Made by a program: the position numbers and the translations under genes. DNA of 61,516 nt, counting the filler, from Actinomycetota bacterium (GTDB lineage: Bacteria > Actinomycetota > Acidimicrobiia > IMCC26256 > VFJJ01): the NCBI GenBank assembly GCA_009886115.1. It is 5 parts of 5 records of this genome, joined end to end, with 100 filler letters (N's around TTAATTAATTAA, not from the genome) between each part and the next. Parts side by side here need not be neighbours in the genome. Positions count along the whole stretch, not along the records: positions 54,673 to 61,516 come from VFJJ01000117.1; 4 more parts are not named here. One strand, given 5' to 3'. Positions 15,313 through 61,440 of the stretch are shown one piece after another (positions within the stretch are counted from its first letter, which is position 1; every line of letters starts with the position of its first letter). The notes below the pieces were generated by a model. It saw nothing but the letters and a program-made list of their open reading frames with translations. It was not told where the DNA came from and ran no database searches.

Positions 15313-15479
15313 CGGCGCCCCCCAGCACGATGGCCCTCCGCACGCTACATCGCCGCAGGTCACCTCGCAGTTCCACCCGCCTCGACCAGTCGCGCCGGGC
15401 GCCCGCCGTCGAGGTCGAATGGGTACTCCCGGCGCCAACTGCAGTCGCCGCGGCGCGCGAGCGCGGCACGGGGCGGCAC

Positions 15480-18910: not shown

Positions 18911-19042
18911 GAGATTGGCGTGAACGTGGTTGATCCGTGCGCGGTGTTGGGCGCGACACGCCGGCGAGGTCCCCCGTGGCGTGGCTGGGCGATCCCCTGA
19001 ACGGGGGATGTAGTGCGTTGGACTGCGGCGCAGGATCGGCTC

Positions 19043-22000
19043 ATGACGGTGCACGCGTTGCCGGTTTCGTGGTTGGATGAGCCGATGGTCGATGGGGCGG
19101 GTCCTGTTTCGCCGGGGTTCTCGTTACCGGTCGGGACGGTGACGTTCCTGTTGACCGACATCGAGGGCTCGACGAGGCGCTGGGAGGCGGCGCCGACCGC
19201 GATGGCGGCGGCGGTGGCTCGCCATTACGAGATCTTGGATGCCGCGATCACCGGCCACCGTGGGGTGCGCCCGGTCGAGCAGGGGGAGGGCGACAGCGTC
19301 GTCGGCGCGTTTGCTCGTGCCTCCGATGCCGTCGCGGCGGCGGTGGACGCGCAGTGTGCGCTGAGTGGCGAACACTGGCCCGATGGGGCAACGGTTCGCG
19401 TCCGGATGGCGTTGCACACCGGGGAGGCGGAGCTGCGCGACGCGGGGAACTACTTCGGCCGGGCCGTCATCCGTTGCGCACGGCTCCGCGCGATCGCCCA
19501 CGGTGGCCAGATCGTGGTGTCGGGAGCGACCGCAGATCTCGTGGTCGACGGGCTGCCGGATGGTGTCTCGCTGGTAGATGCCGGGCTGCACCGGTTGCGT
19601 GACCTCGGTCGACCGGAACGCGTCTGGCAGGTGACCCATCCCGACGTGCCGGGTGGGTTCGGGCCGTTGCGTTCATTGGACGTCCTGCCCAACAACCTGC
19701 CGGTGCAACTCACCAGCTTCGTCGGGCGCGGCCTGGAGCTCGGTGAGCTGCGTGATCTCCTGGCGACGACCCGTCTGTTGTCGGTGACCGGTGCCGGCGG
19801 GTGCGGCAAGACGCGCTTGGCGTTGCAACTCGCGGCCGACGTGCTCGACCGTTACGACGGCGGGTCGTGGCTCGTCGAGTTGGCCGCGGTCACCGATCCT
19901 GATCTGGTTCTCACCGCGATCGCCTCCGGGCTCGGCGAACGAGATCTCGCCGGCGATCTCCTCGAGATCATCGTCGGCCGGCTCGGCGACGAGCCGATAC
20001 TCGTCGTGCTCGACAACTGCGAGCATCTCCTCGACCCGGTGGCCGTGCTGACGCACACCCTGTTGCAGCGTTGTCCCAACCTGACCGTCGTAGCGACCAC
20101 CCGCGAGCCGCTCGGCGTGCCTGGCGAGACGGCCTGGCGGGTCCCGTCGCTCGCCCTCCCCGCCCGCGCGACGACGCTGGCGGTCGGGTCGCTCTCCCAG
20201 TACGACGCGGTGCGCCTGTTTCTCGACCGGGCCACCAAGGCCCGACCGAACTTCCGTCTCACCAACGACAACGCTCCTGCTGTCGCGCAGATCTGCGATC
20301 GCCTCGACGGCATCCCGCTCGCCATCGAGCTCGCCGCGGCCAGGGTGCGCGGGATGGCCGTCGAGCAACTCGCGGCTGGACTCGACGACCGGTTCCGGCT
20401 CCTGACCGGCGGGGCCCGTACCGTTCTGCCCCGCCAGCAGACGTTGCAGGCGTCGGTCGACTGGGGTTACGACCTGCTCTCCGAACGGGAACGTGCCGTG
20501 TTCCGGCGCCTCACCGTGTTCGTCGGCGGTTTCATCCTCGACGCCGCGGAACACGTCGCGGCCAGTGGCGGCATCGAAGCCGTCGAGGTCCTCGATATCC
20601 TCCTCGCTCTCGTCGACAAGTCGATCGTCGTCGCCAACGACGACACCGCCCGGTACGCGATGCTCGAAACGCTCCGCCAGTACGGCGCGGCGCGGCTGCT
20701 CGACGCCGGCGAGACGCCGGCCACTCGCGACCTGCATCTCGCCTGGGCGATCCGGTTCTGCGAGCAGTTCGAGGTGCCGTGGAACCTCACCCGCTCGGTG
20801 CAGCGCGCCCAGCGGCTCGAACCCGAGATCGACAATCTGCGGACGGCGTTCGAATGGGCGATGGTCATCGGAGACGCCGATGCCGCCCATCAGATCGCCG
20901 GCGACCTGGTCATGTGGGGCAACGTCCGTGGCCGTGACGCCCACGAGTCGGTCGCCCTTGCCACCCGGGCGCTCTCGCTCGCCGGTGCCCGGCAGGATCT
21001 GCGCCTCCTCACGATGGCGCAGCTGCTCGTGGCCCGGTCCAGCGCCCGAGACGCCAGCGACGACACGGTCGAGCTCGACATCCTGCTGGGCGAGGCAGGC
21101 GACATCGATGACGACCTGATGCGCTGCCGGGTCCTCAGCCAGGCCGGTCTGGGCAGCTTCCGCACGCCCAGTCGTTCACTCGAGTTCTGGAGCAGTGCCC
21201 TCGAGGCCGCCGACCGGACCGGTATCGCCGAGCTGCAGAGCGCGGTGGCAGCCGGTCTCGCCTCAGCGCACATGCTCACGGGACAGCGCGACGAGGCCGG
21301 ACGGCTCGCCGTCGGGCTGCTCGACAACCCTGATCCCGGCACCGCCATGCTCGCCGCCCACGTCATGATGATCCTCACGGTCGAGGGCGGCCGCTACGAC
21401 GAGGCGCGCCGCTTGATCGACGTCGTCGAGGCGGCGCCGACGTTCCCGACCGGCCCGTTCACGGCCAGGTGCAGCGTTGCCAACCGACGCGCCTGGATCG
21501 CTCTCGCCCAAAGATCCGACACCGTCGAGACCGGCGACACCGCAGCGGCCGCGGCTCTGCTCGCCGAGGCTCGTCGCCGCCGGTTTCCCGTCGCCATCCA
21601 GCTGCTCGGGTGGCTGCCCGGCGTCCACGCCCTGCTCGGAGGCGATGCGGCGACCGCCGTGCGCGAGCTGGTCGCTTGGCGCTCGGAGACCCCCGGACAC
21701 ACCAGCACGTTCGGGCTTCTCCCCTTCGACGTCCATGCGCTCCTCGCCTCCGATCGGTTCGACGACGCTCGTACCGCCATCCAATCCATACGCCGAACGC
21801 TGCGCGAACCGATCGCAATCATCGAGCAGCCCCTCGTCCATGTCGACGGGCTGCTCGCCCGCGTTTCGGGCGATCTCGCCGGCGCCGAGCGGCTCCACCA
21901 CGAAGCGCTCGCATTGCAGCACGCCGGCGGTTGGCGACCCGACCTCGTCCACACGCTCGAAGCCCTGGCCGGTATCGCCGCCGCGGCCGATTCCCACGTG

Positions 22001-22447
22001 GAGTGCGCCCGCCTGGCCGGCGCCGCGCAGGCCCTGCGCGACTCGATGGGCTACCTGCTGCGTTGGCCGTTCGAGCAGCGGCTGCTCGACGCGGCGATCT
22101 CCGGTGGGCGCGCTGGGCTCGGTGACGAATCGTTCGATTCGGCGTTCGCCGAGGGCCGGTCGCTCGACTGCGCCGCCGCGGTCGCCTATGCGACGAGAGC
22201 CCGCGGTGAACGCCGCCGCCCGTCGACGGGCTGGGCCAGCCTCACCCCGACCGAAGCTGACGTCGCCCGACTCGCCAGCGAGGGCCTCACCAACCGACAG
22301 ATCGGTGAGCGGCTCCTGATGGGCGCCGAAACGGTGAAGACCCACCTCTCGCACGTCTACGACAAGCTCGATGTTCGCAACCGCGCGGCGCTGGCGAACG
22401 TCGTGCTCACCGTGGGTCGGACCCAGCCATCATCACGCCCTGGATGA
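19043..22447 (+). CDS. Class III cyclase-STAND ATPase-LuxR HTH regulator (Rv0386-like architecture)
   Basis: TDIEGST, VEQGEGD, GAGGCGKT, LDNCEH and C-terminal WASLTPTE...GLTNRQIGERL...TVKTHLSHVYDKL. Confidence 0.92.
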   Translation: MTVHALPVSWLDEPMVDGAGPVSPGFSLPVGTVTFLLTDIEGSTRRWEAAPTAMAAAVARHYEILDAAITGHRGVRPVEQGEGDSVVGAFARASDAVAAAVDAQCALSGEHWPDGATVRVRMALHTGEAELRDAGNYFGRAVIRCARLRAIAHGGQIVVSGATADLVVDGLPDGVSLVDAGLHRLRDLGRPERVWQVTHPDVPGGFGPLRSLDVLPNNLPVQLTSFVGRGLELGELRDLLATTRLLSVTGAGGCGKTRLALQLAADVLDRYDGGSWLVELAAVTDPDLVLTAIASGLGERDLAGDLLEIIVGRLGDEPILVVLDNCEHLLDPVAVLTHTLLQRCPNLTVVATTREPLGVPGETAWRVPSLALPARATTLAVGSLSQYDAVRLFLDRATKARPNFRLTNDNAPAVAQICDRLDGIPLAIELAAARVRGMAVEQLAAGLDDRFRLLTGGARTVLPRQQTLQASVDWGYDLLSERERAVFRRLTVFVGGFILDAAEHVAASGGIEAVEVLDILLALVDKSIVVANDDTARYAMLETLRQYGAARLLDAGETPATRDLHLAWAIRFCEQFEVPWNLTRSVQRAQRLEPEIDNLRTAFEWAMVIGDADAAHQIAGDLVMWGNVRGRDAHESVALATRALSLAGARQDLRLLTMAQLLVARSSARDASDDTVELDILLGEAGDIDDDLMRCRVLSQAGLGSFRTPSRSLEFWSSALEAADRTGIAELQSAVAAGLASAHMLTGQRDEAGRLAVGLLDNPDPGTAMLAAHVMMILTVEGGRYDEARRLIDVVEAAPTFPTGPFTARCSVANRRAWIALAQRSDTVETGDTAAAAALLAEARRRRFPVAIQLLGWLPGVHALLGGDAATAVRELVAWRSETPGHTSTFGLLPFDVHALLASDRFDDARTAIQSIRRTLREPIAIIEQPLVHVDGLLARVSGDLAGAERLHHEALALQHAGGWRPDLVHTLEALAGIAAAADSHVECARLAGAAQALRDSMGYLLRWPFEQRLLDAAISGGRAGLGDESFDSAFAEGRSLDCAAAVAYATRARGERRRPSTGWASLTPTEADVARLASEGLTNRQIGERLLMGAETVKTHLSHVYDKLDVRNRAALANVVLTVGRTQPSSRPG

Positions 22448-22496
22448 CCCAGCGCGTCGACCTGCCACGTGCGCAGACCGCGACCAAGGAGCTCCG

Positions 22497-23735
22497 ATGC
22501 GATTCCTGATTACCGCCCACGCCGCTCTGGGTCATCTCCGACCGCTGATCGGCGTCGCTCAGGCGCTCGAGGCGGCGGGCCACACGACCGTCACCGCGAC
22601 CGACAATGTGGCCCGAGACGACCTGGCGGCCGCCGGCCTACCGTTGCGTGCCCTGCCAACCACCGACGGCTTCAAGGGCATCACAGACGACGGGATCGTG
22701 CAATCCGCGACCGTGCTGTCCCCGGCTGAACGGCCGGCCTTTGCGCTTCGCTACTTCGTGGATCGAGCCGTGGCGTGGACACCTGCCATCGTGGAGCTGA
22801 TCGAGGAGCTCGCACCCGATGTGATCGTGCGCGAGACGTCGTTCTGGGCCTCATGGCTCGCCGGCGAGATCACCGGGGTCCCCGTGGCCATGTTCAGCTT
22901 CACGCCCGTGGTGAGCGGCTCGACACTCGACTTGGTATCTGGGAATCGGTTCGCGGATGCGTTGGCTCGCTTCGGGTGCCCCGCAGACCCGGACCTCACG
23001 TCAATGACACGGTGGCTCACCCTCCTGGGTTTTCCACCGAGCTGGATCGGGCCGGAACCTGCACTGGAACCGACGACCCATCTCGTGCAGCCGCCCGAGC
23101 CGGAAGAGATCGACGACGGCCGGGTCGCCGCATTGATCGCCGACCTGCCCGACCGTCCCACGGTCTATGTCACGTTGGGGACGACCTTCAACGCCACGCC
23201 TGGCGCGTTTGCCATGGTGCTCGCCGGCTTGCACGAGCTCGACGTCAACGTCATCGCCACGACCGGCCGTTCGCTCGATCCCGCGTCGTTGGGCCCGCAG
23301 CCGGCGCACATCCGCCTCGCCGAGTTCATCCCCCAACGTCTGCTCCTCCCCCATTGCGACGCGGTCGTCGCTCACGGCGGTTACGGTTCGCTCATGGGCG
23401 CGCTCCAACACGGTCTGCCTGTCGTCTCCGTGCCGCTGGCGGCCGCAGACAACATCAGCAAGGCCTCCCGATTGGCCGAGCTGGGTGCGGGGATCGCCGT
23501 GCACGAGGAGGTGCGATCGCCCCGAGCCGTCCACGAAGCCGTGAGCGCCGTGTTGCACGACGGCAGCTACCGGGCCGCAGCACGCGCGCTCGCCGACGAG
23601 ATCGCCGCACTTCCCTCCCCGGCGGCCGTGGTCGGACTTCTCGAACAGCTCGGCAGCACCCGCGCACCAGTCGAATCGCGAGGCCCTGATCGTCGGCCAT
23701 CGGTACGAGGAGATGGCTCATGCGTGTGCTCGTGA
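22497..23735 (+). CDS. GT1-family glycosyltransferase (EryCIII/MGT-like)
   Basis: GHLRPL, VYVTLGT, IPQ..LL..CDAVVAHGGYGS; AAGGAG RBS. Confidence 0.9.
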   Translation: MRFLITAHAALGHLRPLIGVAQALEAAGHTTVTATDNVARDDLAAAGLPLRALPTTDGFKGITDDGIVQSATVLSPAERPAFALRYFVDRAVAWTPAIVELIEELAPDVIVRETSFWASWLAGEITGVPVAMFSFTPVVSGSTLDLVSGNRFADALARFGCPADPDLTSMTRWLTLLGFPPSWIGPEPALEPTTHLVQPPEPEEIDDGRVAALIADLPDRPTVYVTLGTTFNATPGAFAMVLAGLHELDVNVIATTGRSLDPASLGPQPAHIRLAEFIPQRLLLPHCDAVVAHGGYGSLMGALQHGLPVVSVPLAAADNISKASRLAELGAGIAVHEEVRSPRAVHEAVSAVLHDGSYRAAARALADEIAALPSPAAVVGLLEQLGSTRAPVESRGPDRRPSVRGDGSCVCS

Positions 23736-24922
23736 CGGCCAACGGGGCGACGGGACACCTCCGCCCGATGCTGGGGTTGGCGCAAGGACTCGAAGCTGCC
23801 GGCTTGGAGGCGATCGTCGTCACTGATGTCGCCAAGACAGAGAGTCCCGAGCTCGGCGATCTGGCGAGCCGCGTACTCCCCGATGTGAATGAGGAGATCG
23901 GAATCGATCGCGCCGCGTTCATCGCATCTCAGATCAGTCGGGCGCCAGCCGAGCGGTCGGCAGCAGCATTGCGGTACTTCCTGGCGAAGTCCGAAGCCTG
24001 GCTGCCGACGCTGACCGGACTGATCGACGAGCTCCGGCCCGACGTGATCGTTCGCGAGTCCACCTTCTGGGGTTCATGGCTCGCGGGCGAGCTGACGGAG
24101 ACGCCAGTCGCCACGTTCAACTTCCATCCGCCTAGGCCAGCCTCCCGGCTCGATGCCATCGCTGGCGGCGAGTTCAGTGCAGCACGCGCCCGCGCCGGAC
24201 TGCCCGAGGACCCCGAGCTGTCGTCGATCGACCGCTGGCTCACCTTGGTCGGTCTCCCGGCCAGCTGGATCGGCACTGACCAGCCGCGACGCCCGACGAC
24301 CCACCTGATCCAACCGCCCGAACCCGAGACGACCGACGACGGCTCCGTCGACGAGCTGCTTTCCGGGCTGCCAGACCGGCCGACGGTGTACGTCACGCTG
24401 GGGACGACCTTCAACGGTGAACCCGGCGTCTTCGAGATGGTGCTCGACGGTCTGCACGACGTCGACGCCAACGTCATCGCGACGACGGGCCGTTCGATCG
24501 ACCCTGCGTCGTTCGGCCAGCAACCCGAGCATGTGCGACTGACCCGCTATGTCCCGCAGGGACCGCTGCTGTCCCGTTGCGACGCCGTCGTCGCTCACGG
24601 CGGATACGGATCGTTGATGGGTGCACTCAAGCACGGCCTGCCTGTGGTGTCGGTGCCCCTCGCCGCGTCCGACAACAACACCAACGCCTCGCGCTTGGCA
24701 CAACTCGGCGCCGGGATCGCCATCCACCACCACGCACGCTCGCCCCGAGCGGTCACCAACGCCGTGCGCGCCGTACTCGACGACGGCCGCTACCAAGCCG
24801 CCGCACGGGCTCTGGCCGACGAGATCGCGGCGCTCCCGTCCCCGACCGACACCGCGAAGCTGCTCGAACAACTCGGTCAGACCCGCGCGCCCGTCGAGTT
24901 GCCGTGGCCGGTACGAGAGTGA
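23720..24922 (+). CDS. GT1-family glycosyltransferase, paralog of the upstream gene
   Basis: GHLRPM, VYVTLGTTFN, VPQ, AHGGYGS; GAGGAG RBS. Confidence 0.9.
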   Translation: MRVLVTANGATGHLRPMLGLAQGLEAAGLEAIVVTDVAKTESPELGDLASRVLPDVNEEIGIDRAAFIASQISRAPAERSAAALRYFLAKSEAWLPTLTGLIDELRPDVIVRESTFWGSWLAGELTETPVATFNFHPPRPASRLDAIAGGEFSAARARAGLPEDPELSSIDRWLTLVGLPASWIGTDQPRRPTTHLIQPPEPETTDDGSVDELLSGLPDRPTVYVTLGTTFNGEPGVFEMVLDGLHDVDANVIATTGRSIDPASFGQQPEHVRLTRYVPQGPLLSRCDAVVAHGGYGSLMGALKHGLPVVSVPLAASDNNTNASRLAQLGAGIAIHHHARSPRAVTNAVRAVLDDGRYQAAARALADEIAALPSPTDTAKLLEQLGQTRAPVELPWPVRE

Positions 24923-25969: not shown

Positions 25970-25999
25970 CGCCGTCGCACACGTACCCGAGGAGCTGAC

Positions 26000-27406
26000 A
26001 TGACGTCCGATCCAACTCGACGCCAACCGCTTCGCTCGACGCCGGTCGTCACTGAGACGGGCGATCAGCAGTTGAACGGGGCGGCGGTGCCGGTCGCGGA
26101 ACCGAACGACAAGGCGACGATGGGCACGTCGGCAGAAACCAGTGGTCGTACAGCCGTCGGCGTCGATCTCACGGATCATGATCTGTACCGGGGCGGTTTT
26201 CCTCACGAACTGTTCGTCGAGTTGCGTGGCCGGGGAGCGGTGTTGTGGCACGCGCCGGCGGTTCCCCGACCGGGCGGGGCATCGATCGGGTTCTGGGTTG
26301 TTGTTCGCCACGCTGAGGTTCAGCGTGTGAGCCGTGACTCGGAGGCGTTCTCGGCGGCGGACGGCCCGAGCATCGTGGCGTCCCCGGCGCTGAGGGGTCA
26401 TACCCTCACGCATTCCGACGGGCATGATCACACGCGCCTTCGCACATTGATCAGCGCCGGCTTCACGCCACGGATGATCGGCCGGTTAGAGGATCAGATT
26501 CGGATCCGGACCCGCGAGATCCTCGACGTCGTTGCCGGCATGGGCGAGTGTGAATTCGTGCGCGACATCGCGTACCTGCTGCCGATGCAGCTCATCGGCG
26601 ACATCATCGGGATACCCGAAGCCGACCGGTCCTGGGTGTTCGCCCAGACCGATGCGATCATCGGTGGCGCGAGCTCGGCGCCCGTCGGGGCGAGCGAAGC
26701 GGAGCGGCAGCTCTTCGCATATGCGCAGCAACTGGGCGAGGCGAAGCGGCGCCAACCAGCTGACGATGTGTGGAGCCTGCTCGCGGCGGCCGAGATCGAC
26801 AAGAACGAGGGGGCCTCGCTGTCGGGGCTGGAGCTGGACTTCTTCTTCGCGATCCTGTCGATCGCGGGCAGCGAGACCACCCGCAACGCGATCTCGCACG
26901 GACTCCTCGCCTTGCTGGACCACCCCGAGCAGCTGGCGTCGTTGCGGGCGGCGTCGCTCGGTGGCGACACCCACCTGCTCGACACCGCAACGGAGGAGAT
27001 CATTCGCTGGGCGAGCCCGGTAACGTGTTTCAGCCGCTCCGCCACCCGCGATGTCGAGCTCGGCGGCGCGGAGATCCGCGCCGGCGACCGCGTCACCGTC
27101 TGGTATCCGTCGGCCAACCGTGACGAGCGGGCGTTCGACGATCCCTTCCGGTTCGACATCACGCGCTCACCCAATCCGCACGTGTCGTTCGGTGGTGCCG
27201 GATCGCACTACTGCCTGGGTGCCCACCTCGCCCGCCGGGAAGTACGCGTCATGTTCGAGCAGCTCCTGACGCGCTTCGAGGGGATCGAAGTGACCGGGCC
27301 GGTCACCCACAACGTGAACGGTCTGGCACACTCGATCGCCGTGTCGGTCAAGCATGTGCCGGTTCGCCTCGTCACCCGACCATCATCACGGACCCCGGGA
27401 GCATGA
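26000..27406 (+). CDS. Cytochrome P450, paralog of 14038-15312
   Basis: IAGSETTRN, EEIIR, FGGAGSHYCLG; GAGGAG RBS. Confidence 0.92.
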   Translation: MTSDPTRRQPLRSTPVVTETGDQQLNGAAVPVAEPNDKATMGTSAETSGRTAVGVDLTDHDLYRGGFPHELFVELRGRGAVLWHAPAVPRPGGASIGFWVVVRHAEVQRVSRDSEAFSAADGPSIVASPALRGHTLTHSDGHDHTRLRTLISAGFTPRMIGRLEDQIRIRTREILDVVAGMGECEFVRDIAYLLPMQLIGDIIGIPEADRSWVFAQTDAIIGGASSAPVGASEAERQLFAYAQQLGEAKRRQPADDVWSLLAAAEIDKNEGASLSGLELDFFFAILSIAGSETTRNAISHGLLALLDHPEQLASLRAASLGGDTHLLDTATEEIIRWASPVTCFSRSATRDVELGGAEIRAGDRVTVWYPSANRDERAFDDPFRFDITRSPNPHVSFGGAGSHYCLGAHLARREVRVMFEQLLTRFEGIEVTGPVTHNVNGLAHSIAVSVKHVPVRLVTRPSSRTPGA

Positions 27407-49243: not shown

Positions 49244-49343
49244 NNNNNNNNNNNNNNNNNNNNNNNNNNNNNNNNNNNNNNNNNNNNTTAATTAATTAAN
49301 NNNNNNNNNNNNNNNNNNNNNNNNNNNNNNNNNNNNNNNNNNN
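49244..49343. other. Artificial contig linker
   Basis: N-run with TTAATTAATTAA. Confidence 0.98.
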
Positions 49344-50566
49344 AGGCGCTCCTCGTGCACGACGCGACGGGTCTGCGCGAAGAGCTCGCGCAGCGCTGGA
49401 TCCCATGGCGTGTGCGGTACCGGGCGATCGTCGACGGGAAGCTCGACGCCTTCAGCTCGCGCTCGCTCGACGGCACGTTGGTAGTCGACGGCGTCCATGT
49501 GCCAGGGCGTGAGCCCCAGCGCCTGGAGCCGTCCGCAGATGGCGAGGCCGGCTGCGTCGAAGTCGCCGTGATAACGCAGGTGAGCGCCGGCTCCGATCAT
49601 CAGATCGAGCAGGGTGCGCACCGCTGTCGACGGGTTGCCGTTGGTCGACACCACAGCCTGGGCACTGCGACGTTGCGCGGCGAACTCGACGACACGGGGG
49701 TTCTCGACGACCAGCACGTCGGCTCCGGCCACCAGCTCCAACGGAGCGCTTCGCAACGCCAACTGCGACAGGTGGATCGGGATCCCGAGGGCGGTGGCCC
49801 CACTCACCAACGCGCCGAGCCCTGAAGGTGCCGGCGATGCCGCGACCGGGAGGGCCCAGGTGAGCACCGGAGCCGACGTGAGATCGAGGTGCACCCCGGC
49901 ATGCTCCCAGGCCTCGCGTCGTAGAGACGCCCGGTGCTCGTGTGCCAGGGCGCGTCCGACGGCGGCCTCCAGGCGGGTGCCACTGTCGAGGGCGTGGGCA
50001 TCTCCGAACAGGGTGGCCGCGAGGTCGACCCGGCTGATCGGCCTGGGTGAATCAGCCAGGCCGGCGCCGCCGGTCGTTGTGGCCCATGTGGTTTCGAGCC
50101 GGTCGAGCACGGCGCGGGCGGCGCTCAACAACTCGAGGGCCCCCGGCTCGTCGAGGCCGCGCAAGATCCCGGCTCGGATGATCTCGTCGATCCAGGCTCG
50201 AGCCCAGTCGTCGGACCACTGGGCGACCGTCGCCCGAGCCGCGTCGCGAGCGCGCCCGGCGATCGCGCGCTGCTGGCGTTGGCGTTGCGGTTCCTCGGAG
50301 ACCGGATGACCGAGGACGCCCAGCGCGTCGGCCAGGTTCGCGGCCACACCCAATCGGGCCAACGCCTGTTCGAGAACGCCGAGATCGACCGTGGCGCCCG
50401 GGGAACGGCCCAGCAGGCTGGTCAGCGTCAGACGGGCCGACGGCCCGAGCGGCGGCAGTCTCACACGGCCCAGCCCTTCGTACCCACGGCGTTCCAATCG
50501 GCGCGCGACCGTTGCCCAGAGCACGTCGAGCTCGGCGTCGAGCAATGACGACGGTGGTGCGCTCAC
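49344..50566 (-). CDS. jetD: TIGR02679-like (DUF3323+DUF2399) Toprim nuclease, Wadjet II JetD-like; 3' end cut
   Basis: GDAHALD, VVENP, TNGNPS, YHGDFDAAG. Confidence 0.82.
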
Positions 50567-51729
50567 CAGAGCGTCTCCTGCTCGGACGGGTCGGCGTCGG
50601 GTGCAGCCCGGGGCACGGACCGAAAGCGCGACGCCCCCGGGAGGATCCGTACCACCCGCCGATCGCCGTGCTCGTCACGAGCGATGTCGACCACCTCGGT
50701 GATCTCGGCGAGGCGGTGGTCGATGAGCAGGTCGAGCACCTGGCGGGTGAGCCGCTCGGGGGATGCCACGAGATCGCCGGCCCACCCGGCGGCGTGGCCC
50801 TCGGCCAGCCGGGACACGGCGTCGACCACGGCGCGGTAGGGGTGATAACTGCCCGATTCGGTGTAGGCCAGCTCATCGACCAGCAGCAGGGCGGCGTGAC
50901 CGACCGTACCGGTGCTGGGGAACCGGCGATGCGACAGTGCGCCCGACGGGTCGATCGCCGCCACGCCTTCGGCCCGAGCCTCGACGACGAGGCCGAGCAT
51001 CTCGTCGAGCAGACGCTCCTCGTCGCCCAGGCGTCGACGGAGCTCGTCCCATTCGTCGTCGGTCAGGTCGGGGCGGTAGATGACCGGTGTCTCGACGAGC
51101 CGGCAGCGCAGCCACTGGCGGGTGGTGCTGCGCCGCTCGGAGCGGGCCACGAGCTCGCCAGCGTCGGCCGCGCCCACCAGGGCCGGCAGCGCCAGGAGGA
51201 CGATGCGATCGGGCCGGACCCTGAGCACGGCGTCAGCGTCGTCGTCGGTGGCGTAGGCATCGACCTGGGCGTGCAGCTCGCTGGCCAGGCCGTGGTCGAT
51301 CATCCACCGCAGGACGGCCACCAGGGCTCGCCGCTCGGCGGAATCTCCGACGAGGACGATCTCGGCTTCGGCGGCCGCCGATCGCACCTGATCCACCAGG
51401 TCACGCAGGCTGATCACGGCCGGTCCCGCGGCCGTGCTCGCGAGCACGAGGGCCAGCAGCACGTGCTCGAGCTGGTGCAGTGCCCGTCCGCTTTCGGTGC
51501 GCAGCGGCTGGCGCTCTATGAGCACCCCGGACTTGAACAGCCGGGCCGTGTCGGCGTCGACGTGCAGGCGGTAGCCGAGCCGTTGGGTGAACCAGCGGTC
51601 GAGCTCGACCTCGTGGCGGCGGATCAGCCGGAAGACCTCGGGATCGTGCTCGGCGCACGTCAAAGGCTCTTGGACGAGTTGCCGCATCGCCTGGCGGCGC
51701 TCGGCTGCGGCGTGCGGATCGTCGCTCAC
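50563..51729 (-). CDS. jetB: TIGR02678-like (DUF2398), JetB-like
   Basis: WFTQRLGYRL...ARLFK, RRALVAVLRW, LVETPVIY, EARAEG; GTGA-coupled to both neighbours. Confidence 0.78.
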   Translation of the reverse strand: MSDDPHAAAERRQAMRQLVQEPLTCAEHDPEVFRLIRRHEVELDRWFTQRLGYRLHVDADTARLFKSGVLIERQPLRTESGRALHQLEHVLLALVLASTAAGPAVISLRDLVDQVRSAAAEAEIVLVGDSAERRALVAVLRWMIDHGLASELHAQVDAYATDDDADAVLRVRPDRIVLLALPALVGAADAGELVARSERRSTTRQWLRCRLVETPVIYRPDLTDDEWDELRRRLGDEERLLDEMLGLVVEARAEGVAAIDPSGALSHRRFPSTGTVGHAALLLVDELAYTESGSYHPYRAVVDAVSRLAEGHAAGWAGDLVASPERLTRQVLDLLIDHRLAEITEVVDIARDEHGDRRVVRILPGASRFRSVPRAAPDADPSEQETLW

Positions 51730-53351
51730 GAGCCCGATCCCCACTCGCCGGTGATTTCGAAAGCGGTGGCTTCGAAGGCGGTGGCCCCGTCGACGATCAT
51801 TTCGAAAGCGGTGGTTTCGACGGTACCAACAGGTTCGATCGTCACGTGCAGACGGCACAGGGTGAGCGTGCCATCGACCGATGCGATGGCCAGGTCGGCT
51901 TCGACACGCCGCTGGACGATGCAACGCAGAGCGCCGTCGTCGACGGACGCGCCGAGATGCTCGACGCCGAGGCCCGTCATCGCCCGGGCGAGGACGCGTT
52001 GCAGCCGTGCCATCGCGGGTCCGCTGAGCGTGCGTCCCGCCAACGGCCCGGCGAGCAGCTCTTCGTCGACCTGCCGGGCGGCGTCGAGCTCGGCGGCGCG
52101 CCGTTGCCGCAGAACCCGTTCTTCCAGGGCCCGGTCTCGCAGCGGGCTGGCTCGTCCTCGATTGGTGGTGTCGCCCCGTTCGCGCAACGACACCGGCACC
52201 ACGGCGCGCGGGGCGTCGCGCCACGGCGTTGACGTGGTCACCGGATCGCCGGCGTCGTCGGCCAGCACGCCCCAGTGCGTCGTGGGATGCAGGCCGAACG
52301 CCGCGACGACCAGCTGGGGCAGCTGCTCGGGCGTGGCGTCGTGGAACCACCGGGCGATGCGCAGGAAGTCGGCCCGTCTCGACGACGCCCCGACGCCCAC
52401 CCGCGAGAGACGGGCCAGGTTCAGGGTGAGCGTGCGGATCGCCGCGACGGCCTCCCGACCGAGCTGCTCGATGCGCGATGGTCGACCGCGCCGGCTCACG
52501 AACCATCCCGCAAGATGGTCCCAATCGGCGATGGTGGCTCCGGCGCGACGAGTCACGCTCACCGAGTCGTCGAGCCCGGCCTGGGCCACCCGGGTCGCCA
52601 GGCCCAGATGGGCCCGTTCGACGATGAGCGCGAACCTCGGGGCCAGCTCGTCGAGCACATGGCCGATCGGACGGGCGGTGCGCTCGATCTCGTCGAGTCG
52701 TTCGGCCACGTAGCCGACGAGCACCTCGGCGAAGAACCGGAACTCGTCGGGACTGAGGTCGTAGCGGCTCTGCCACTGGTTGATGGCGGCGAAGAACTGT
52801 GTGATCTCAGCGGTGAAGACCTGATGGGGATCGAACACCGCGCCGACGAGATCGCCCAGGGTGACAGGATCGATCACCGCGATGTCGTGCGCGGCCAGGG
52901 TGCGCAGCGCCTCGAGCAGCACCCGGAGCCGGCCCGTCGAGACGTCGCGCACCTCGTCGACCCGGGCAAGCACGCCCTCGACGAGGTCGTGCACCTCTTG
53001 ACCGGCCCGGGTGATCAGGTAGCGGTTCCGTCGTCGGTAGTAGTCGGCGATGCTCGTGGGGTTGCCGATCGACGTCGACACCGTGAGATTGCCCCAACGG
53101 CGCAGGCTCTCGAGGCGGTCGGCGACCACCGTTGGATCGACGTCGTCGGCCCGAGCGCCGAGCGCCGCCTGCACGTCCTCGGGGGTGAACTCCGAGAAGA
53201 ACGTGCCCGCGAACACCGCCATGATGGCCCGGTACTCGCGCCATTCGTCGCCGCCGAGGTAGCGGAACAGCCGCCGGCCCTGGTCCTCCCGCTCGTCGAC
53301 AGGCGCGGCCGATGAAGTCGGTGCAGTCGGCGCGTTCGGCGTCTCGCTCAT
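51726..53351 (-). CDS. jetA: TIGR02677-like (DUF2397), JetA-like
   Basis: LFRYL...EYRAIM..F, LRRWGNL, SRRADFLRIARWF, AAFGL, WRDAP. Confidence 0.8.
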   Translation of the reverse strand: MSETPNAPTAPTSSAAPVDEREDQGRRLFRYLGGDEWREYRAIMAVFAGTFFSEFTPEDVQAALGARADDVDPTVVADRLESLRRWGNLTVSTSIGNPTSIADYYRRRNRYLITRAGQEVHDLVEGVLARVDEVRDVSTGRLRVLLEALRTLAAHDIAVIDPVTLGDLVGAVFDPHQVFTAEITQFFAAINQWQSRYDLSPDEFRFFAEVLVGYVAERLDEIERTARPIGHVLDELAPRFALIVERAHLGLATRVAQAGLDDSVSVTRRAGATIADWDHLAGWFVSRRGRPSRIEQLGREAVAAIRTLTLNLARLSRVGVGASSRRADFLRIARWFHDATPEQLPQLVVAAFGLHPTTHWGVLADDAGDPVTTSTPWRDAPRAVVPVSLRERGDTTNRGRASPLRDRALEERVLRQRRAAELDAARQVDEELLAGPLAGRTLSGPAMARLQRVLARAMTGLGVEHLGASVDDGALRCIVQRRVEADLAIASVDGTLTLCRLHVTIEPVGTVETTAFEMIVDGATAFEATAFEITGEWGSGS

Positions 53352-53353
53352 GG

Positions 53354-54572
53354 TCACCGCACCTCGTGGCGCGTGCGACCGTCCCAGCGGGCGTGCTCGA
53401 GGACGATGACGCCGAGACCGGCATCGCGCACCACCTCGGTGATCGCCAGCTCGGGAACGGTGGCGTGGGTACCCCAGAGGCGCTCGCTCGTCGCCACGAA
53501 GTCGAGATCGAGCTCGACGAGGAGCCCGAACAGCTTGGGGTGGTTGTCTTCTGAGACCTTGGCGAAGGCGTCGTCGATGACCACGAAGCGAGGCGCGTCG
53601 GCCGCCTTCTCCGAGATGGCGTCGCACGAGGCGGCGACGGCCGCGAACAGGGCGAGGTAGCTCACGACCTTCTTCTCACCCTCCGACAGTGCCGTACGGC
53701 GCGAGAGCCGCTCGTCGCTGCTGCCGGGCCGGTGCAGCATCACGACGGTACGGTGCCAGTTGCGATAGTCGAGCACCTCGGCGACGAGCGATCGGTACGG
53801 GGTGTCGGGCTGCTCGCGCCGGGCCGCCGCGATCCGTTCGGAGAGCGCAGCGACGAGCTCGGCGTCCTCGTCGACGGTTCGCAGGTCGGGTCGCTTCGAC
53901 AGCAGCGTCATCATGGTGACGAGCCCGTCGTCGAGGTCGTCGCGCCGGGTCCATCGGAGCGACACGCCGATGCCGTGAGCGGTGGTCACCGAGCCGAGCC
54001 GCCGGTTCATCAACGTCACGAGCTCACGGGCCGCGTGGAGCTTCTCGGCCACCTCGCGGGCGATGAGCCCCTGCAGCAGGTTGCGCAGCGCCTGATCCTG
54101 CTTGACCGACAGGAGGCTGCTCATCGAACGCAGCTGCGCCCCGACCTCGGCCAGCGCCGCTCGCAGCGGCATCCGCCCGAGCGGACCCGTCACCTCCACG
54201 TGCAGCGGCAGGGTCTCGTCGGGCTGGCGGTCCTCGGCATCCCAGCCGGCTCCCAACGAGTCGCGTCGCTGGCGCAGCGACTGGCGGACGCCGTCGGCGG
54301 TGGTGGGTCCACGCTCGGGCGGGGGCACCCGGGCCCGCAGCGCCTGGGCGAGCGTCCGCAACCCGTCCGACGATTCGTCGACGACCGGGAACACCCGGGC
54401 CTCGGACTGCTGGGACTGCTGGGACTGCTGGGACTGCTGGGACTGCTGGGCGCCCTCGGCGCCCGCGTCCACCGCGCCCTCGGCGCCCGCGTCCACCGCG
54501 CCCTCGGCATCCCCGTCGTCCGCGGTGTCGTGGGCGGATGCGGCCGTGGTGGCCAGGGCCGAGTCGACCAGC
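53354..54572 (-). CDS. jetC: TIGR02680-like SMC ATPase C-terminal part (JetC-like), 5' end cut
   Basis: VLDYRNWH, LSEGEK signature, FVVIDDAF Walker B, LDLDFVATSERLWG. Confidence 0.82.
54403..54506. repeat. In-frame tandem repeats within jetC: 9-bp GGACTGCTG x5 and 21-bp x2
   Basis: They encode QQSQQS... and (M/V)DAGAEGA twice. Confidence 0.85.
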
Positions 54573-54672
54573 NNNNNNNNNNNNNNNNNNNNNNNNNNNN
54601 NNNNNNNNNNNNNNNNTTAATTAATTAANNNNNNNNNNNNNNNNNNNNNNNNNNNNNNNNNNNNNNNNNNNN
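54573..54672. other. Artificial contig linker
   Basis: N-run with TTAATTAATTAA. Confidence 0.98.
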
Positions 54673-57038: not shown

Positions 57039-58502
57039 ATGTCCGAGGCCGCCACACCACGCCCCACACCTGCGCTGTCCGACGGGTGGGTGGCGATCGT
57101 GAAGCGCGACTGCCCCACCTGCACCCTGGTGGTCCCCGCGTTGCGACGGCTCTCGGAGGCGTCCGAGGGCACCCTCACGATCTACACGCAGGACGACCCT
57201 GCGTTCCCCGAGGGCCTGGCGCCGGTCACCGACGCCGACCTGTTCGTGAGCTGGCGACTGCAGGTGGAGACCGTCCCGACGTTGCTCCGGGTCACCGATG
57301 GTCTCGAACGCGACCGGCTCGTGGGCTGGGACGCCGACGCGTGGGCTGCGCTCACCGGCGTCGCCGGCATCGGAGACGGCCTTCCGCCGCACCGCCCGGG
57401 GTGCGGTTCGAAGACGCTCGATCCAGGCATGCCCGAACGTTTGGCGGTCCGCTACGACGGGGAGCGCCTGCGTTCGCGCCGGGCCGAGCTGGCGAGCCTC
57501 GAGGACGACATCGAGGCCTGCTACGACAGGGGATGGTCTGACGGGTTGCCCGTCGTGCCTCCCACACCCGAGCGGGTGCTGCGCATGCTCGCCGGCACCA
57601 CCCGGGCCCCCGACGAGATCGTGACCATCGTTCCCCCCGACTTCAACGAATGCACGGTCGAGAAGGTGGCCATCAACGCCGTGATGGCGGGATGCCTCCC
57701 CGAGTACCTGCCCGTCGTGCTGGCGGCGGTGGAGGCTGCGTGCAACGAGACGTTCAACATGCACGGGCTGCTGTGCACGACCATGCCGCACGCGCCCGTG
57801 ATCGTGGTGAACGGACCGATCGCCAAGGCCATCGGCATGAACGGCGGCGGCAACGTGCTGGGCCAGGGGAACCGGGCCAACTCGACGATCGGACGGGCCC
57901 TGCAGCTCGTCGTGCGCAACGTGGGCGGCGGCAAGCCTGGCGGCATCGATCGGGCCACCCACGGCCAGCCCGGCAAGGTGGGTCTGTGCTTCGCCGAAGA
58001 CGAGGACGGTTCGCCGTGGGAACCGTTGTCGGTCACGCGTGGCATCGAGCCCGGACGCTCAGCGGTGACGCTCTTCGCCGGCGAGGGTCCCCGGGTGGTG
58101 GTCGACCAGCTCTCGCGGCGTCCCGAGTCGCTGGCTCGTTCGCTGGCCGATGCGCTGTTGACCGTCGGCAGCGCCAAGGCCGTCATCGCCTTCGACGCCA
58201 TGCTCGTCGTCGGCCCCGAACACGCTCGGGTCTTTCGCGATGCCGGCTGGACCCGCGACCGGCTCGTGGCCGAGCTGAACACCATGACCACCCGGCCCGG
58301 CTCCGCGGTCGTCCGTGGGGCCGGGGACTGTGACGAGGGCATGCCCGAGGGCTTCGCCGGCGCGCCCGCCGTCCCCAAGTTCCGGCCCGGCGGGCTGATG
58401 ATCGTCCACGCTGGCGGCACCGCCGGGCTGTTCTCGGCCATCATGGGGAGCTGGGCCGCCGGCGAGATCGGTAGCGCACCCGTCACCATGGGCGTCAACT
58501 GA
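57039..58502 (+). CDS. Thioredoxin-like (CPTC) domain fused to an uncharacterised domain (GWSDGLPVVPPT) associated with UGSC loci
   Basis: KRDCPTC, VETVPTL, RPGCGS, EKVAINAVMAGC, GNRANSTIGRAL; TACGGT -10 box 6 nt before the ATG. Confidence 0.78.
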   Translation: MSEAATPRPTPALSDGWVAIVKRDCPTCTLVVPALRRLSEASEGTLTIYTQDDPAFPEGLAPVTDADLFVSWRLQVETVPTLLRVTDGLERDRLVGWDADAWAALTGVAGIGDGLPPHRPGCGSKTLDPGMPERLAVRYDGERLRSRRAELASLEDDIEACYDRGWSDGLPVVPPTPERVLRMLAGTTRAPDEIVTIVPPDFNECTVEKVAINAVMAGCLPEYLPVVLAAVEAACNETFNMHGLLCTTMPHAPVIVVNGPIAKAIGMNGGGNVLGQGNRANSTIGRALQLVVRNVGGGKPGGIDRATHGQPGKVGLCFAEDEDGSPWEPLSVTRGIEPGRSAVTLFAGEGPRVVVDQLSRRPESLARSLADALLTVGSAKAVIAFDAMLVVGPEHARVFRDAGWTRDRLVAELNTMTTRPGSAVVRGAGDCDEGMPEGFAGAPAVPKFRPGGLMIVHAGGTAGLFSAIMGSWAAGEIGSAPVTMGVN

Positions 58503-58593
58503 TCCCAGCCGACTGTGGACCTGCCGCCGCAGCTGCCCGACCACCCGACCACTCATCTACCCGACAGCCCCCACCCGTGAGAGGGAGTCCGAC

Positions 58594-59127
58594 GTGGAGA
58601 TCCAGACGTTCGAACCGCGCACCCTGCTCGACCCCACCGGTGAACAGACGCCCGGTCATCGAGAGCTGAGCGCCCGGCTCGACGGGGTCGGTGGGCGCAC
58701 GATCGCGCTGCTCGACATCTCCAAGGCCCGGGGCGACGTGTACCTCGACGAGCTGGCCCGGCTGCTCGAGGCCCGCGGCGCCGCTGTCGAGCTGTTCCGC
58801 AAGCCCACCTTCACGAAGAACGCCCCCATCGACCTGCGCCACGAGATCGCATCGAAGGCCCACGCCGTCGTCGAGGCGCTCGCCGATTGAGGCAGTTGCA
58901 CGTCGTGCAGTGTGCACGACATCGCCGACTTCGAGCGTCGGGGCATCCCGTCGGTCTTCGTCGCCTCGACCGAATTCGTGGTCGCCGCCGCGGCCCAGTC
59001 GGCTTCGCTCGGCATCGAGCCTCGCTCGGTGTTCGTGCCCCATCCCATACAGGACCGCACCGACGACGAGATGCGGGCCCTCGCCCGGGCATCGATCGAC
59101 GAGATCGTCGCGGCGATCACCCGCTGA
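58594..59127 (+). CDS. UGSC-family selenoprotein (Sec at TGA 58888-58890)
   Basis: ORFs 58594-58890 and 58912-59127 are in the same frame; readthrough gives ALAD-U-GSCTSCSVHD; a hairpin follows the TGA; GAGGGAG RBS. Confidence 0.88.
58902..58920 (+). promoter_or_regulatory. Bacterial SECIS-like hairpin
   Basis: GTCGTGCA-GTG-TGCACGAC, a perfect 8-bp stem with 11 nt between it and the TGA, and G in the loop. Confidence 0.72.
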
Positions 59128-59134
59128 GGTCCCG

Positions 59135-59497
59135 TCAGCTCCGGAGGTAGAAGAACCAACTGGCGATCGAGAGCGTGCCGATCATGAGGATCAACGCCGC
59201 GGCCACGGCCGAGCGGCGCACCTTGCCGTCGGCTCGCCGGGGCAACCGACGGCGAACCCGCTGGAGCAGTCGATCGGCCCAGGCGACGTCCTTGGCCAGG
59301 ATCGACAGGCCCGAGGCGATGATGACCCATCCGGGGCCGGGCAACGGGAGCAACACGATCCCGATCACGACGACCACGAATCCCACGAACATCCGGGGGA
59401 AGCGGACGTACCACGGGGCTCGGCGCCGGGGCCGAGCGTCGCCGCGATCACGATCACGGGCCAGCTCTTCGACTCGACGCTCTGTGCGGCGGCTCAC
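59135..59497 (-). CDS. PGPGW-domain membrane protein
   Basis: LPLPGPGW between hydrophobic helices. Confidence 0.85.
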   Translation of the reverse strand: MSRRTERRVEELARDRDRGDARPRRRAPWYVRFPRMFVGFVVVVIGIVLLPLPGPGWVIIASGLSILAKDVAWADRLLQRVRRRLPRRADGKVRRSAVAAALILMIGTLSIASWFFYLRS

Positions 59498-60399
59498 AGC
59501 GCGATCCGCTCGGGATGGCTGTAGACGTTGAACCCTCCGTCGCGGACGAAGCCCGCCACGGTCACGCCGAGCCGGCGGGCGGCATCGACGGCCAGGCTCG
59601 ACGGCGCCGAGACCGCAGCGATGAACCCGATCCCTGCCATGGCCGCCTTCTGCACGATCTCGAAGCTCACCCGGCCCGAGACGAACAGCGCGCGCGAGCG
59701 CAACGTGTGGAGACCGCCGTTCAAGAACGCGTGGCCGATGACCTTGTCGACGGCGTTGTGACGGCCCACGTCTTCGCGCACGATGCTCAGCTCACCCGCG
59801 GCGTCGAACAGCGCGGCCGCGTGGAGGCCACCGGTGGCACTGAACACGCGTTGGCCGACCCGGAGCCGCTCGGGCATCACGACGAGCACGCCCCGAGGGA
59901 CGATGGGCCCCGGCCACATCGGCGGGCACTGGCGCTCCACCTGGTCGAGGCTGGCCGCGCCGCAGATGCCGCACGATGCGTTCGTCGTGAACCGGCGCAC
60001 CTGATCGGGCAGGGTCACGTGTCGCCTGACTCGCACGGTGACGATGTTGTACTCCTGCTCCCCCTTCACCGGACCGCAGTACGCCACGGTCTTGATCACG
60101 TCGTCGGCGTGCAGGATGCCCTCGGTGACGCAGAACCCCACGGCCAGCTCGAAGTCGTGCCCCGGCGTGCGCATGGTGACGGCCAGCGGCGGCACCTCAC
60201 CGTGCGGACCGCCGACGCGGATCTCCATCGGTTCCTCGGCGGCCAGCTTGTCGGGCCGTTCCCGAGCCGGGCCGCCGTCGCCCGGAACGACCAGCACCCG
60301 AACCTCGGCCGTCGAACGCCGCGGCGTACGGCGCGATATCGCCGGTGAGCCGGTCGGGTGCGATCGACCGGTGCCGGTGGGAATCTGTCCCTCGCTCAT
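59494..60399 (-). CDS. fdhD: Formate dehydrogenase accessory sulfurtransferase
   Basis: EEPMEIR, MRTPGHD, SCGICG, TGGLHAA, EDVGRHNAVDK, SGRVSFE. Confidence 0.93.
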   Translation of the reverse strand: MSEGQIPTGTGRSHPTGSPAISRRTPRRSTAEVRVLVVPGDGGPARERPDKLAAEEPMEIRVGGPHGEVPPLAVTMRTPGHDFELAVGFCVTEGILHADDVIKTVAYCGPVKGEQEYNIVTVRVRRHVTLPDQVRRFTTNASCGICGAASLDQVERQCPPMWPGPIVPRGVLVVMPERLRVGQRVFSATGGLHAAALFDAAGELSIVREDVGRHNAVDKVIGHAFLNGGLHTLRSRALFVSGRVSFEIVQKAAMAGIGFIAAVSAPSSLAVDAARRLGVTVAGFVRDGGFNVYSHPERIAL

Positions 60400-61016
60400 G
60401 GTGTCACCTCGGCGTGAAGCCCGAGCCGGTGGAGGTCGGCGGGCGTGTCGACATCGGCGAGCACCATCGCCCCGCCGACAGGAGCGAAGGCCGGCTCCCG
60501 CAACGCGGTCCACGGGACCCGTTCCAGCAGCGCCCGCATCGACCGCACCCCCGTGGCGAGCAGCCTGGATGCACATTCGAGCGCATCGGGCGACCAGCGG
60601 GCGCACAGCACCTGCGCCCGTCCTTCGACGACCGGTACCACCGACGCCCGTGCCGGATGGTCGACGATGATCGTCAGCGCTGCGGCGGTGATGAACGGCA
60701 GATCGACCGCGAGGACCAGGACCGGGCCCTCGTGGCCCCGCTCGAGGAGCCACCGGTGGCCGGTGACCAAGGCCGCCAACGGGCCCGCCCCGGGTGTCTC
60801 GTCGGCCACCCGGGCCAGCCCCGAGACCCCCGGCCCGACCTCGACCGCACGGGGACACGCCTCGAGCAGGATCGAGCCCGAACGCTGGCCCAGGCTCCAC
60901 GGGGCGTCATCGACGACGAGGCGCGCCTTGTCGGCACCCATGCGCCGACTCGCCCCTCCCGTGAGGAGCACTCCAGCGACCGATCCTGGCTCTGACAGCG
61001 CACCATCCCGAGACAT
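60396..61016 (-). CDS. mobA: Molybdenum cofactor guanylyltransferase
   Basis: LTGGASRRMGADKA, GPLAAL, AVDLPF, DVDTPAD. Confidence 0.88.
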   Translation of the reverse strand: MSRDGALSEPGSVAGVLLTGGASRRMGADKARLVVDDAPWSLGQRSGSILLEACPRAVEVGPGVSGLARVADETPGAGPLAALVTGHRWLLERGHEGPVLVLAVDLPFITAAALTIIVDHPARASVVPVVEGRAQVLCARWSPDALECASRLLATGVRSMRALLERVPWTALREPAFAPVGGAMVLADVDTPADLHRLGLHAEVTP

Positions 61017-61146
61017 CGCACCATCTTGACGCGCCACGCGACATGATGGTGACCAAGCCCGGCTTCGAGGCCGCTCGGGCTCGCTGCCCGGCCCCGCACC
61101 GTCGCTGTGCCGAGCCCGTCCCGTCGGCCCAGGAGGTCCCGCGCCC

Positions 61147-61329
61147 ATGACCGAGCCCTTGCCCTGCCCTCGCTGCGGCGGTGCGCTCTCGTCGGCGTTG
61201 TACGGACCGTGCCCGGCGTGTCGGACCGACCTCCGGGCCCGCTCCGTGCGCCAGTCCGAGCTCCTCGAGGTCGCGGCATACGAGCCCAGGATGAACGTGG
61301 TGCCCAACCAGGTTGCCACCAAGGACTGA
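61147..61329 (+). CDS. Small CxxC-CxxC zinc-ribbon-like protein
   Basis: AGGAGG RBS; CPRC...CPAC in 60 aa. Confidence 0.7.
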   Translation: MTEPLPCPRCGGALSSALYGPCPACRTDLRARSVRQSELLEVAAYEPRMNVVPNQVATKD

Positions 61330-61440
61330 CGGACCGAATTCCGGGCTGCGCTCCCACGGAGGCCTCCCGATGGCCGATAATGGGTCCGTGCACCTCCCCC
61401 AACGTCGATCGGTGCCCGCTTCAACCCGACGGCAGCGGTC

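Follow-up and report, generated by a model that had tools for sequence, protein, structure and literature searches.

A UGSC-family selenoprotein gene with a predicted SECIS element and a thioredoxin-Unknown_1 partner in an Acidimicrobiia genome

Introduction

The UGSC family was reported in 2007 as a selenoprotein of unknown function (PMC1976440) and was listed in 2008 as a major aquatic family fused to a domain named Unknown_1 (PMC2398784). In the latter paper, Zhang and Gladyshev counted 255 selenocysteine (Sec) forms versus 21 Cys forms in the Global Ocean Sampling (GOS) data (Table 2), presented GOS reads in which Unknown_1 is fused to UGSC (Fig. S1) and proposed a likely thioredoxin (Trx)-like fold. 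The entries on UGSC in reviews of 2022 (PMC9312934) and 2026 (PMC13188914) still describe it as uncharacterised, and a full-text literature search on “UGSC” returned bioinformatic mentions only. Here we analyze a gene of this family found in a 61,516-nt stretch of DNA (referred to as the window) from an Actinomycetota bacterium of the class Acidimicrobiia (GCA_009886115.1). The gene is interrupted by an in-frame TGA codon, and its decoding as Sec via an intragenic selenocysteine insertion sequence (SECIS) of the SelB type is strongly supported by comparison with related loci.

The SECIS of Escherichia coli has been described, in its minimal form, as a stem-loop that starts with nucleotide 15, is spaced 11 nt from the UGA and carries G23 and U24 in its apical loop (PMC8659212). 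The protein and the RNA element of the window are compared below with these described systems.

Identification of the selenoprotein gene

The following features define the gene:
58581-58587, plus strand: Shine-Dalgarno-like sequence GAGGGAG, 6 nt ahead of the GTG start; a putative site read from the sequence.
58594-59127, plus strand: UGSC-family selenoprotein gene with a GTG start, a Sec codon at residue 99 and a TGA stop (59125-59127); predicted product of 177 amino acids (aa).
58888-58890, plus strand: in-frame UGA, the predicted Sec codon (U99) of the motif ALAD-U-G-S-C-T-S-C; TGA in the window and in 80/80 related loci.

Sequence, open reading frame (ORF) list and translation agree with the original prediction that two ORFs, 58594-58890 (GTG start, 98 aa) and 58912-59127 (71 aa), lie in a common frame and are split solely by the TGA at 58888-58890. 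Reading this codon as U yields the 177-aa product, containing ...VVEALAD-U-GSCTSCSVHD.... The G+C content of third codon positions (GC3) in the frame of the gene is equally high before (0.90) and after (0.88) the TGA, so coding runs on past the stop. The GTG of the downstream ORF sits within the hairpin described below and lacks a ribosome-binding site. Of the 30 Pfam-supported genes of the window, 29 have TGA as their ordinary stop, among them the UGSC gene itself at its end, and a global reassignment of the code is therefore excluded.

The read-through protein scores 144 bits with the NCBIfam model NF041046, “UGSC family (seleno)protein” (curated cut-off 125), and 140.5 bits with the Pfam model PF24696, “UGSC” (cut-off 25). 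Its membership of this family, which the original prediction mentions as having been named, is thus strongly supported at the sequence level. It shares with the UGSC-containing protein of Zhang and Gladyshev the U-G-S-C motif, the length class and the link to Unknown_1. The partner at this locus is a separate gene with a Trx domain, in contrast to the described fusions; otherwise there is no essential difference.

A word-seeded search of a set of 5.8 billion proteins returned 588 relatives of the read-through protein, of which 120 were listed. Most of those listed are 97-115 aa long, span roughly half of the query and have ...EALAD as their exact C-terminus. They are ORF-caller truncations at the Sec codon, and do not refute Sec decoding, because the DNA of the 80 related loci continues in frame. 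About 20 full-length relatives among those listed carry C at the Sec column (Cys or a converted U), with W in two and R in one.

The related loci were obtained by a single scan of the GTDB species genomes with a peptide pattern lying upstream of the Sec column; the resulting sample is therefore not biased towards TGA. The scan gave 595 confirmed relatives, and the best 80 were retained, mostly from metagenome-assembled genomes of Acidimicrobiia and other Actinomycetota, with some labelled Myxococcota, Chloroflexota and others. The nearest genomic relatives of the UGSC protein share 59-69% identity with it. Matches in the 80 loci (tblastn) extend over residues ~9-176, i.e. on both sides of the TGA, and the Sec column is occupied by TGA in all 80: 79 were recognized by the pattern ...ALAD-TGA-G[ST]C[TS][ST]C, and one (L042), which reads GSCASC after the TGA, was recognized by eye. 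A Cys codon (TGC or TGT) was found at this column in none of the 80 loci. The expectation of Cys or TGA here, with homology on both sides, was thus borne out in its TGA form. The further expectation that standard annotation would miss the gene holds for plain ORF callers, which split it, but not for NCBI annotation as a whole, where the curated model NF041046 exists.

The predicted SECIS element

The RNA features predicted downstream of the UGA are as follows:
58902-58920, plus strand: SECIS upper hairpin, an 8-bp stem of 58902-58909 (GTCGTGCA) with 58913-58920 (TGCACGAC) and a GTG loop (58910-58912).
58895-58926, plus strand: possible lower stem extension, pairing nucleotides 8-11 and 13 with 35-39; in the window it includes one U-C mismatch and one G-U pair.

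The perfect 8-bp hairpin beginning 11 nt past the TGA was found exactly as originally predicted, and spans nucleotides 15-33, with the U of UGA as nucleotide 1. With the fdhF-type SECIS of E. coli it shares the intragenic site, the start at nucleotide 15, the 11-nt spacing and the loop nucleotides G23 and U24, while differing in having a perfect 8-bp stem and a 3-nt loop (5 nt if the closing A-U pair opens).

For comparison, the 53 nt from the UGA were aligned without gaps for 81 sequences (the 80 loci and the window; 78 distinct rows). No variation occurs in columns 19-24 and 26-29, and the apical loop keeps G23 and U24 in 81/81. The six inner pairs of the upper stem (17-31 to 22-26) are kept in all 81 sequences, and the two outer pairs in 75/78 and 70/78 distinct rows. 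In pair 18-30, G-U occurs nine times and a compensatory A-U once (L079). Across the whole hairpin, the window nucleotides match the family consensus.

The lower SECIS helix (nucleotides 8-13 with 35-39) is possible but weakly supported and poorly conserved. Pair 10-37 is formed in 78/78 distinct rows; pair 9-38 occurs as CG, GC, UG, GU and AU, with 12 double changes, yet is unpaired in 48/78. Single-sequence folds also suggested another lower helix, of nucleotides 1-5 with 42-46, which was dropped since column 45 varies freely.

The codons used within the hairpin were then compared with those used elsewhere. Codon entropy was computed from the codon alignment of the 81 genes, among the sequences sharing the majority residue. 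At the seven hairpin codons following C102 the majority codons are:
Thr: ACG in 77/80.
Ser: TCG in 72/73.
Cys: TGC in 81/81.
Ser104: AGT in 81/81.
Val: GTG in 78/78.
His108: CAC in 71/81.
Asp: GAC in 81/81.

Entropy at these codons is 0-0.5 bit, compared with ~1.2-2.2 bits at conserved sites of four- and six-fold degeneracy elsewhere in the gene; the invariant Ser101, two codons past Sec, is written with six codons. Protein constraint cannot fix synonymous sites, and their freezing therefore points to selection on the RNA, as for a SelB-type SECIS. The SECIS-like hairpin of the original prediction thus gains both the geometry of a bacterial SECIS and signs of RNA-level selection in 81 sequences. 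Together with the conserved TGA, this strongly supports, on comparative sequence grounds, 58594-59127 as a genuine UGSC-family selenoprotein gene, in which UGA-99 would be decoded as Sec via an intragenic SelB-type SECIS.

The upstream partner gene

Directly upstream lies a second gene:
57039-58502, plus strand: partner gene (487 aa), co-oriented with the UGSC gene and ending 91 nt ahead of its start.

In its product, C25-P-T-C28 lies in an N-terminal domain of thioredoxin fold, Cys122 in a linker, and the conserved Cys219 and Cys317 in a C-terminal Unknown_1 domain (~145-487). The protein has no Pfam or NCBIfam match. The partner was detected by tblastn in 76 of the 80 loci, nearly always ending directly before the UGSC gene; in L018 and L021 it lies farther away. 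In three of the four loci lacking it (L009, L030 and L039), the contig ends ~400 nt or less from the UGSC gene, which leaves no room for the partner, and the fourth (L014) is without one. Obligate genomic association of the Trx-Unknown_1 gene with the UGSC gene is thus strongly supported by the compared loci.

An AlphaFold 2 (AF2) model of the partner (predicted local distance difference test score, pLDDT, 94.7; predicted template modelling score, pTM, 0.90) shows a thioredoxin fold at residues ~14-110, which match thioredoxins in the fold search. With the whole-protein model as the query, thioredoxins matching this N-terminal domain filled the list. The only long alignments, with class I fumarate hydratase, were rejected as noise (template modelling (TM) score ~0.2, root-mean-square deviation 14-16). 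Searches of the PDB sequences with the partner gave a thioredoxin at E 0.66 and otherwise chance matches at E > 1.

The C-terminal domain contains the motif block AINAVMAGC.PEY.PVV.AA.EA...FN.HG...TT......VVNGP and, judged by its sequence, is the Unknown_1 drawn in Fig. S1A of PMC2398784. An exhaustive HMMER search for the partner family recovered at least 6171 cluster representatives (E ≤ 0.001; clusters at 50% identity). Architectures and Cys counts were taken from the best 150 of these representatives and from samples of them. The architectures comprise free-standing Unknown_1 (~350 aa), tandem doubles (~710 aa), Trx-Unknown_1, AhpC/TSA-Redoxin-Unknown_1 and, in ~19 of the 150, fusions with UGSC: five whole UGSC-Unknown_1 proteins, three Unknown_1-UGSC proteins stopping at the Sec column and 11 starting just past that column. 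In one protein of 470 aa (P0290), the catalytic beta-chain domain of ferredoxin-thioredoxin reductase (FTR; PF02943, E 2e-21) precedes Unknown_1, at the place taken elsewhere by Trx or UGSC. Six proteins of ~710 aa (P0283, P0294, P0306, P0308, P0311 and P0368) contain two matched stretches and no Pfam domain, and are apparent tandem duplications of Unknown_1.

Pfam searches at E ≤ 1 of 42 partner relatives revealed N-terminal redox domains only, with nothing on Unknown_1 and no GrdE/PrdA-like signal, and the clusters returned by the ESM Atlas were unannotated or UGSC-bearing only. Cys219 is kept in 133/142 and Cys317 in 116/141 of the 150 representatives, while C25, C28 and C122 are kept in 119/119 members of the close partner family. 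The interchange of Trx, AhpC/TSA and FTR-beta modules on Unknown_1 fits a catalytic domain served by dithiol modules.

Predicted fold of UGSC and its distant likenesses

The AF2 model of UGSC (pLDDT 91.6) is a five-strand parallel alpha/beta sandwich. In this model Sec99 follows strand 91-97 and caps helix 100-115 at its N-terminus, next to Cys102 (U-x-x-C) and Cys105 (C-x-x-C). The best PDB fold matches are flavodoxins, flavin mononucleotide (FMN) reductases and MdaB, at low TM scores (0.3-0.5) that make the fold class no more than indicative, and no thioredoxin-fold chain is among the matches listed. The UGSC profile gave 0 matches to PDB sequences at E ≤ 1. The model is therefore indicative of a small generic flavodoxin-like domain and not of the Trx-like fold proposed in PMC2398784. 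With the Trx-fold CxxC/UxxC selenoproteins (Trx-like, peroxiredoxin (Prx)-like and SelW-like), UGSC shares the UxxC at a helix start; it differs from them in its predicted flavodoxin-type fold, and here the true Trx-fold CxxC is held by the partner.

A second likeness was found with selenoprotein B of the reductases. The NCBIfam models of GrdB, GrdF and GrdH, together with that of the broader selenoprotein-B subfamily, match UGSC residues ~85-171 with E-values of 5e-5 to 2e-2, and TIGR01917 (GrdB) is matched at E ≤ 0.01 by 21 of 35 UGSC family members, always round the Sec region. UGSC residues ~85-165 are aligned with model positions ~333-416 in GrdB/PrdB selenoprotein B (TIGR01917, NF040794 and TIGR01918). 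PrdB is itself listed as a UxxC protein in Table 2 of PMC2398784. Judging by the coordinates, the matched region should hold the Sec of that family, in which case Sec would be aligned on Sec. UGSC (177 aa) is much shorter than GrdB, GrdF, GrdH or PrdB (~430 aa), and the likeness is weak and local, although repeated. We regard it as a lead to a possible common ancestry of the Sec-bearing core and not as membership. No GrdE/PrdA-like pyruvoyl proprotein, GrdA or GrdC/D was found among the window genes, the partner family or the recurrent neighbours.

Proposed mechanism

It is reasonable to infer, in agreement with the original prediction, that UGSC is a Sec-dependent redox protein. In the model, U99 and C102, with C105, would form a selenenylsulfide/disulfide redox centre, a layout usual for such centres. 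UGSC may then act together with the upstream protein as a module in a two-gene redox system, in which the CPTC domain of the partner and the U-G-S-C centre would swap reducing equivalents by selenol/thiol-disulfide exchange. The equivalents would be passed to, or drawn from, a Cys219/Cys317 site of Unknown_1, which would act on a substrate as the catalytic end of a dithiol relay. The weak likeness to GrdB, GrdF and PrdB suggests, as a lead only, a reductase-like chemistry with Sec as the attacking nucleophile and Cys as the resolving residue.

A bolder hypothesis can be put forward only tentatively, and we hold it to be rather unlikely as a whole. UGSC and Unknown_1 might constitute an undescribed selenium-dependent reductase, with a Sec module minimally related to the GrdB/PrdB core. 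Interchangeable dithiol modules (Trx, Prx-like and FTR-beta) would feed this Sec module, which would serve a very large family of catalytic domains (at least 6171 clusters) of new fold and new substrate chemistry, without relatives in Pfam, NCBIfam or the PDB, and the system would be widespread in aquatic Acidimicrobiia and other bacteria.

Weighing of the evidence

Sec decoding, a SECIS and a two-gene redox system with the upstream protein form, taken together, the explanation that we consider probable. Several observations weigh against it. No selA, selB, selD or tRNA-Sec is present in the 61.5-kb window (ARAGORN; Pfam on the 51 window ORFs), and ARAGORN found no tRNA of any kind there. The folding energy of the hairpin region is unremarkable (71-nt stretch, z = -1.05; 28/200 shuffles fold as well) in DNA of 69% G+C, and does not rise above chance; the case for a SECIS therefore rests on the comparison with relatives. 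In that comparison the upper stem is nearly invariant and covariation is thin, with one double change only. The shuffle controls are exceeded only modestly (covariation score reached by 2/500, percentage paired by 6/500), and related sequences can yield such values without structure. No Rfam family fits the hairpin, either at the gathering threshold over the whole window or at permissive E-values on 58850-58960. In place of the bulged U17 of the E. coli element there is a C17, which pairs with G31 in 81/81. Such a bulge is a trait of the E. coli element and not of all bacterial SECIS.

On the protein side, the fold matches of UGSC are generic. Its scores with the GrdB-type models lie far under the cut-offs (22.3 vs 602.2 bits for TIGR01917, 17.2 vs 65.45 for TIGR01918), and the Pfam GRDB model is not matched. 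The C-terminal ~340 residues of the partner (Unknown_1) have no convincing PDB match by fold or sequence, and the redox relay between the two proteins is one that we only infer.

Among the alternative explanations, the one that survives best treats UGSC as a general thiol-disulfide oxidoreductase or antioxidant that works on its own beside an incidental neighbour, although we judge it improbable. It draws on the UxxC and CxxC motifs and on the likely Trx fold proposed in PMC2398784. The AF2 model is, however, flavodoxin-like, with no thioredoxin-fold chain among its listed matches, and the adjacency of the partner in 76/80 loci, together with its fusion to UGSC in both orders elsewhere, does not suggest an incidental neighbour. 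No other neighbour family exceeds 25/81 loci: ORF clustering at or below this level recovered prolyl oligopeptidase, HhH-GPD glycosylase, flavin reductase, MauE/DoxX, acyl-CoA dehydrogenase and alpha/beta hydrolase, which were rejected as functional partners and taken as lineage synteny. Of the remaining neighbours in the window, tblastn detected FdhD in one of the 80 related loci, the luciferase-like gene in four and the rest in none.

It is less probable still, and distinctly unlikely, that the Sec machinery has been lost or was never present, with UGA acting as a true stop (giving a 98-aa fragment) or undergoing low-level near-cognate readthrough as Trp or Cys. The lack of sel genes and tRNA-Sec in the window is in line with this, as are the W or R residues at the Sec column in three database records (P0002, P0007 and P0003), which may be caller artefacts. 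However, the window represents ~2% of a genome (61 kb), so absence from it says little, and a hairpin identical to the family consensus would decay without SelB. In addition, a tRNA-Sec (anticodon tca) adjoins the Trx-Unknown_1/UGSC operon in five of the 80 relatives, lying 20-85 nt upstream of it and divergently oriented. The tRNA search of the loci placed these genes as follows:
L034, 8407-8502, minus strand: tRNA-Sec beside the operon.
L049, 8401-8490, minus strand: tRNA-Sec beside the operon.
L059, 8385-8474, minus strand: tRNA-Sec beside the operon.
L066, 494-587, minus strand: tRNA-Sec beside the operon.
L075, 8370-8459, minus strand: tRNA-Sec beside the operon.

As a separate observation, ~2 kb downstream of the UGSC gene in L002 (12505-12600, minus strand), ARAGORN reported a “tRNA-Val (cac)” that, at 96 nt, is of unusual length for this tRNA.

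There is also very little to recommend the view that the hairpin has arisen from the coding of the conserved peptide C-T-S-C-S-V-H-D, whose Cys, His and Val codons are palindromic, and has no function as RNA. The arms are indeed built of the TGC, GTG and CAC codons of invariant residues, and covariation is minimal. The synonymous sites are nevertheless frozen here, while equally conserved residues elsewhere use 2-6 codons; moreover, of the C-to-T changes in the His108 codon, the only one accompanied by a 5'-arm change is compensatory (L079), and the other nine give G-U pairs.

Finally, a nonsense mutation or sequencing error, leaving a pseudogene or two unrelated small ORFs, would account for the split by plain ORF calling and for the hundreds of database proteins stopping at ...EALAD, but is scarcely credible given a TGA at the same column in 80/80 independent genomes, protein conservation and high GC3 on both sides, and a downstream GTG buried in the hairpin without a ribosome-binding site. 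Decoding of UGA-99 as Sec in a two-gene unit thus remains the explanation that we prefer.

Other genes in the window

Downstream of the UGSC gene, on the opposite strand, genes for FdhD (formate dehydrogenase accessory sulfurtransferase; NF001943, 280 bits) and a MobA-like NTP-transferase were identified (59494-60345 and 60396-61424, both minus strand). They are separated from the UGSC gene by a PGPGW membrane protein gene (59135-59497, minus strand). Formate dehydrogenases, the enzymes that FdhD serves, are often selenoproteins; no fdhA is present in the window.

Pfam searches distinguished several further groups of genes. DUF3323+DUF2399, DUF2397 and SbcC/RAD50-like Walker B ATPase genes (49295-54616, minus strand) look like a conserved SMC-like multi-gene cluster, perhaps defence-like. 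Two very large Calx-beta-repeat proteins are encoded at 732-5783 (minus strand) and 6371-10096 (plus strand); a GHL15 glycosyl-hydrolase-like domain is present in one of them and a lamin-tail domain in the other. Genes for two cytochromes P450 and for two adjoining EryCIII-like glycosyltransferases (14041-15531, minus strand; 22338-24919 and 25970-27403, plus strand) have a large LuxR-type regulator gene (19001-22444) nearby, and possibly form a small natural-product tailoring cluster.

Conclusions

The selenoprotein call is in itself ordinary, as publications on the family go back to 2007-2008 and curated models exist. The operon statistics, the fusions in both orders, the alternative redox modules, the predicted non-Trx fold, the GrdB-like local similarity, the frozen SECIS codons and the adjacency of tRNA-Sec go somewhat beyond the print that we found, and are computational only. 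Correct annotation of such loci avoids the split ORFs that fill databases. The partner contributes a putative catalytic domain from a very large family that has neither annotation nor structure. The locus offers a clean two-gene unit, and its nearly E. coli-like SECIS geometry may make heterologous expression feasible. It is also a reminder that UGSC, among the most abundant selenoprotein families of aquatic bacteria, is still without an assigned function.

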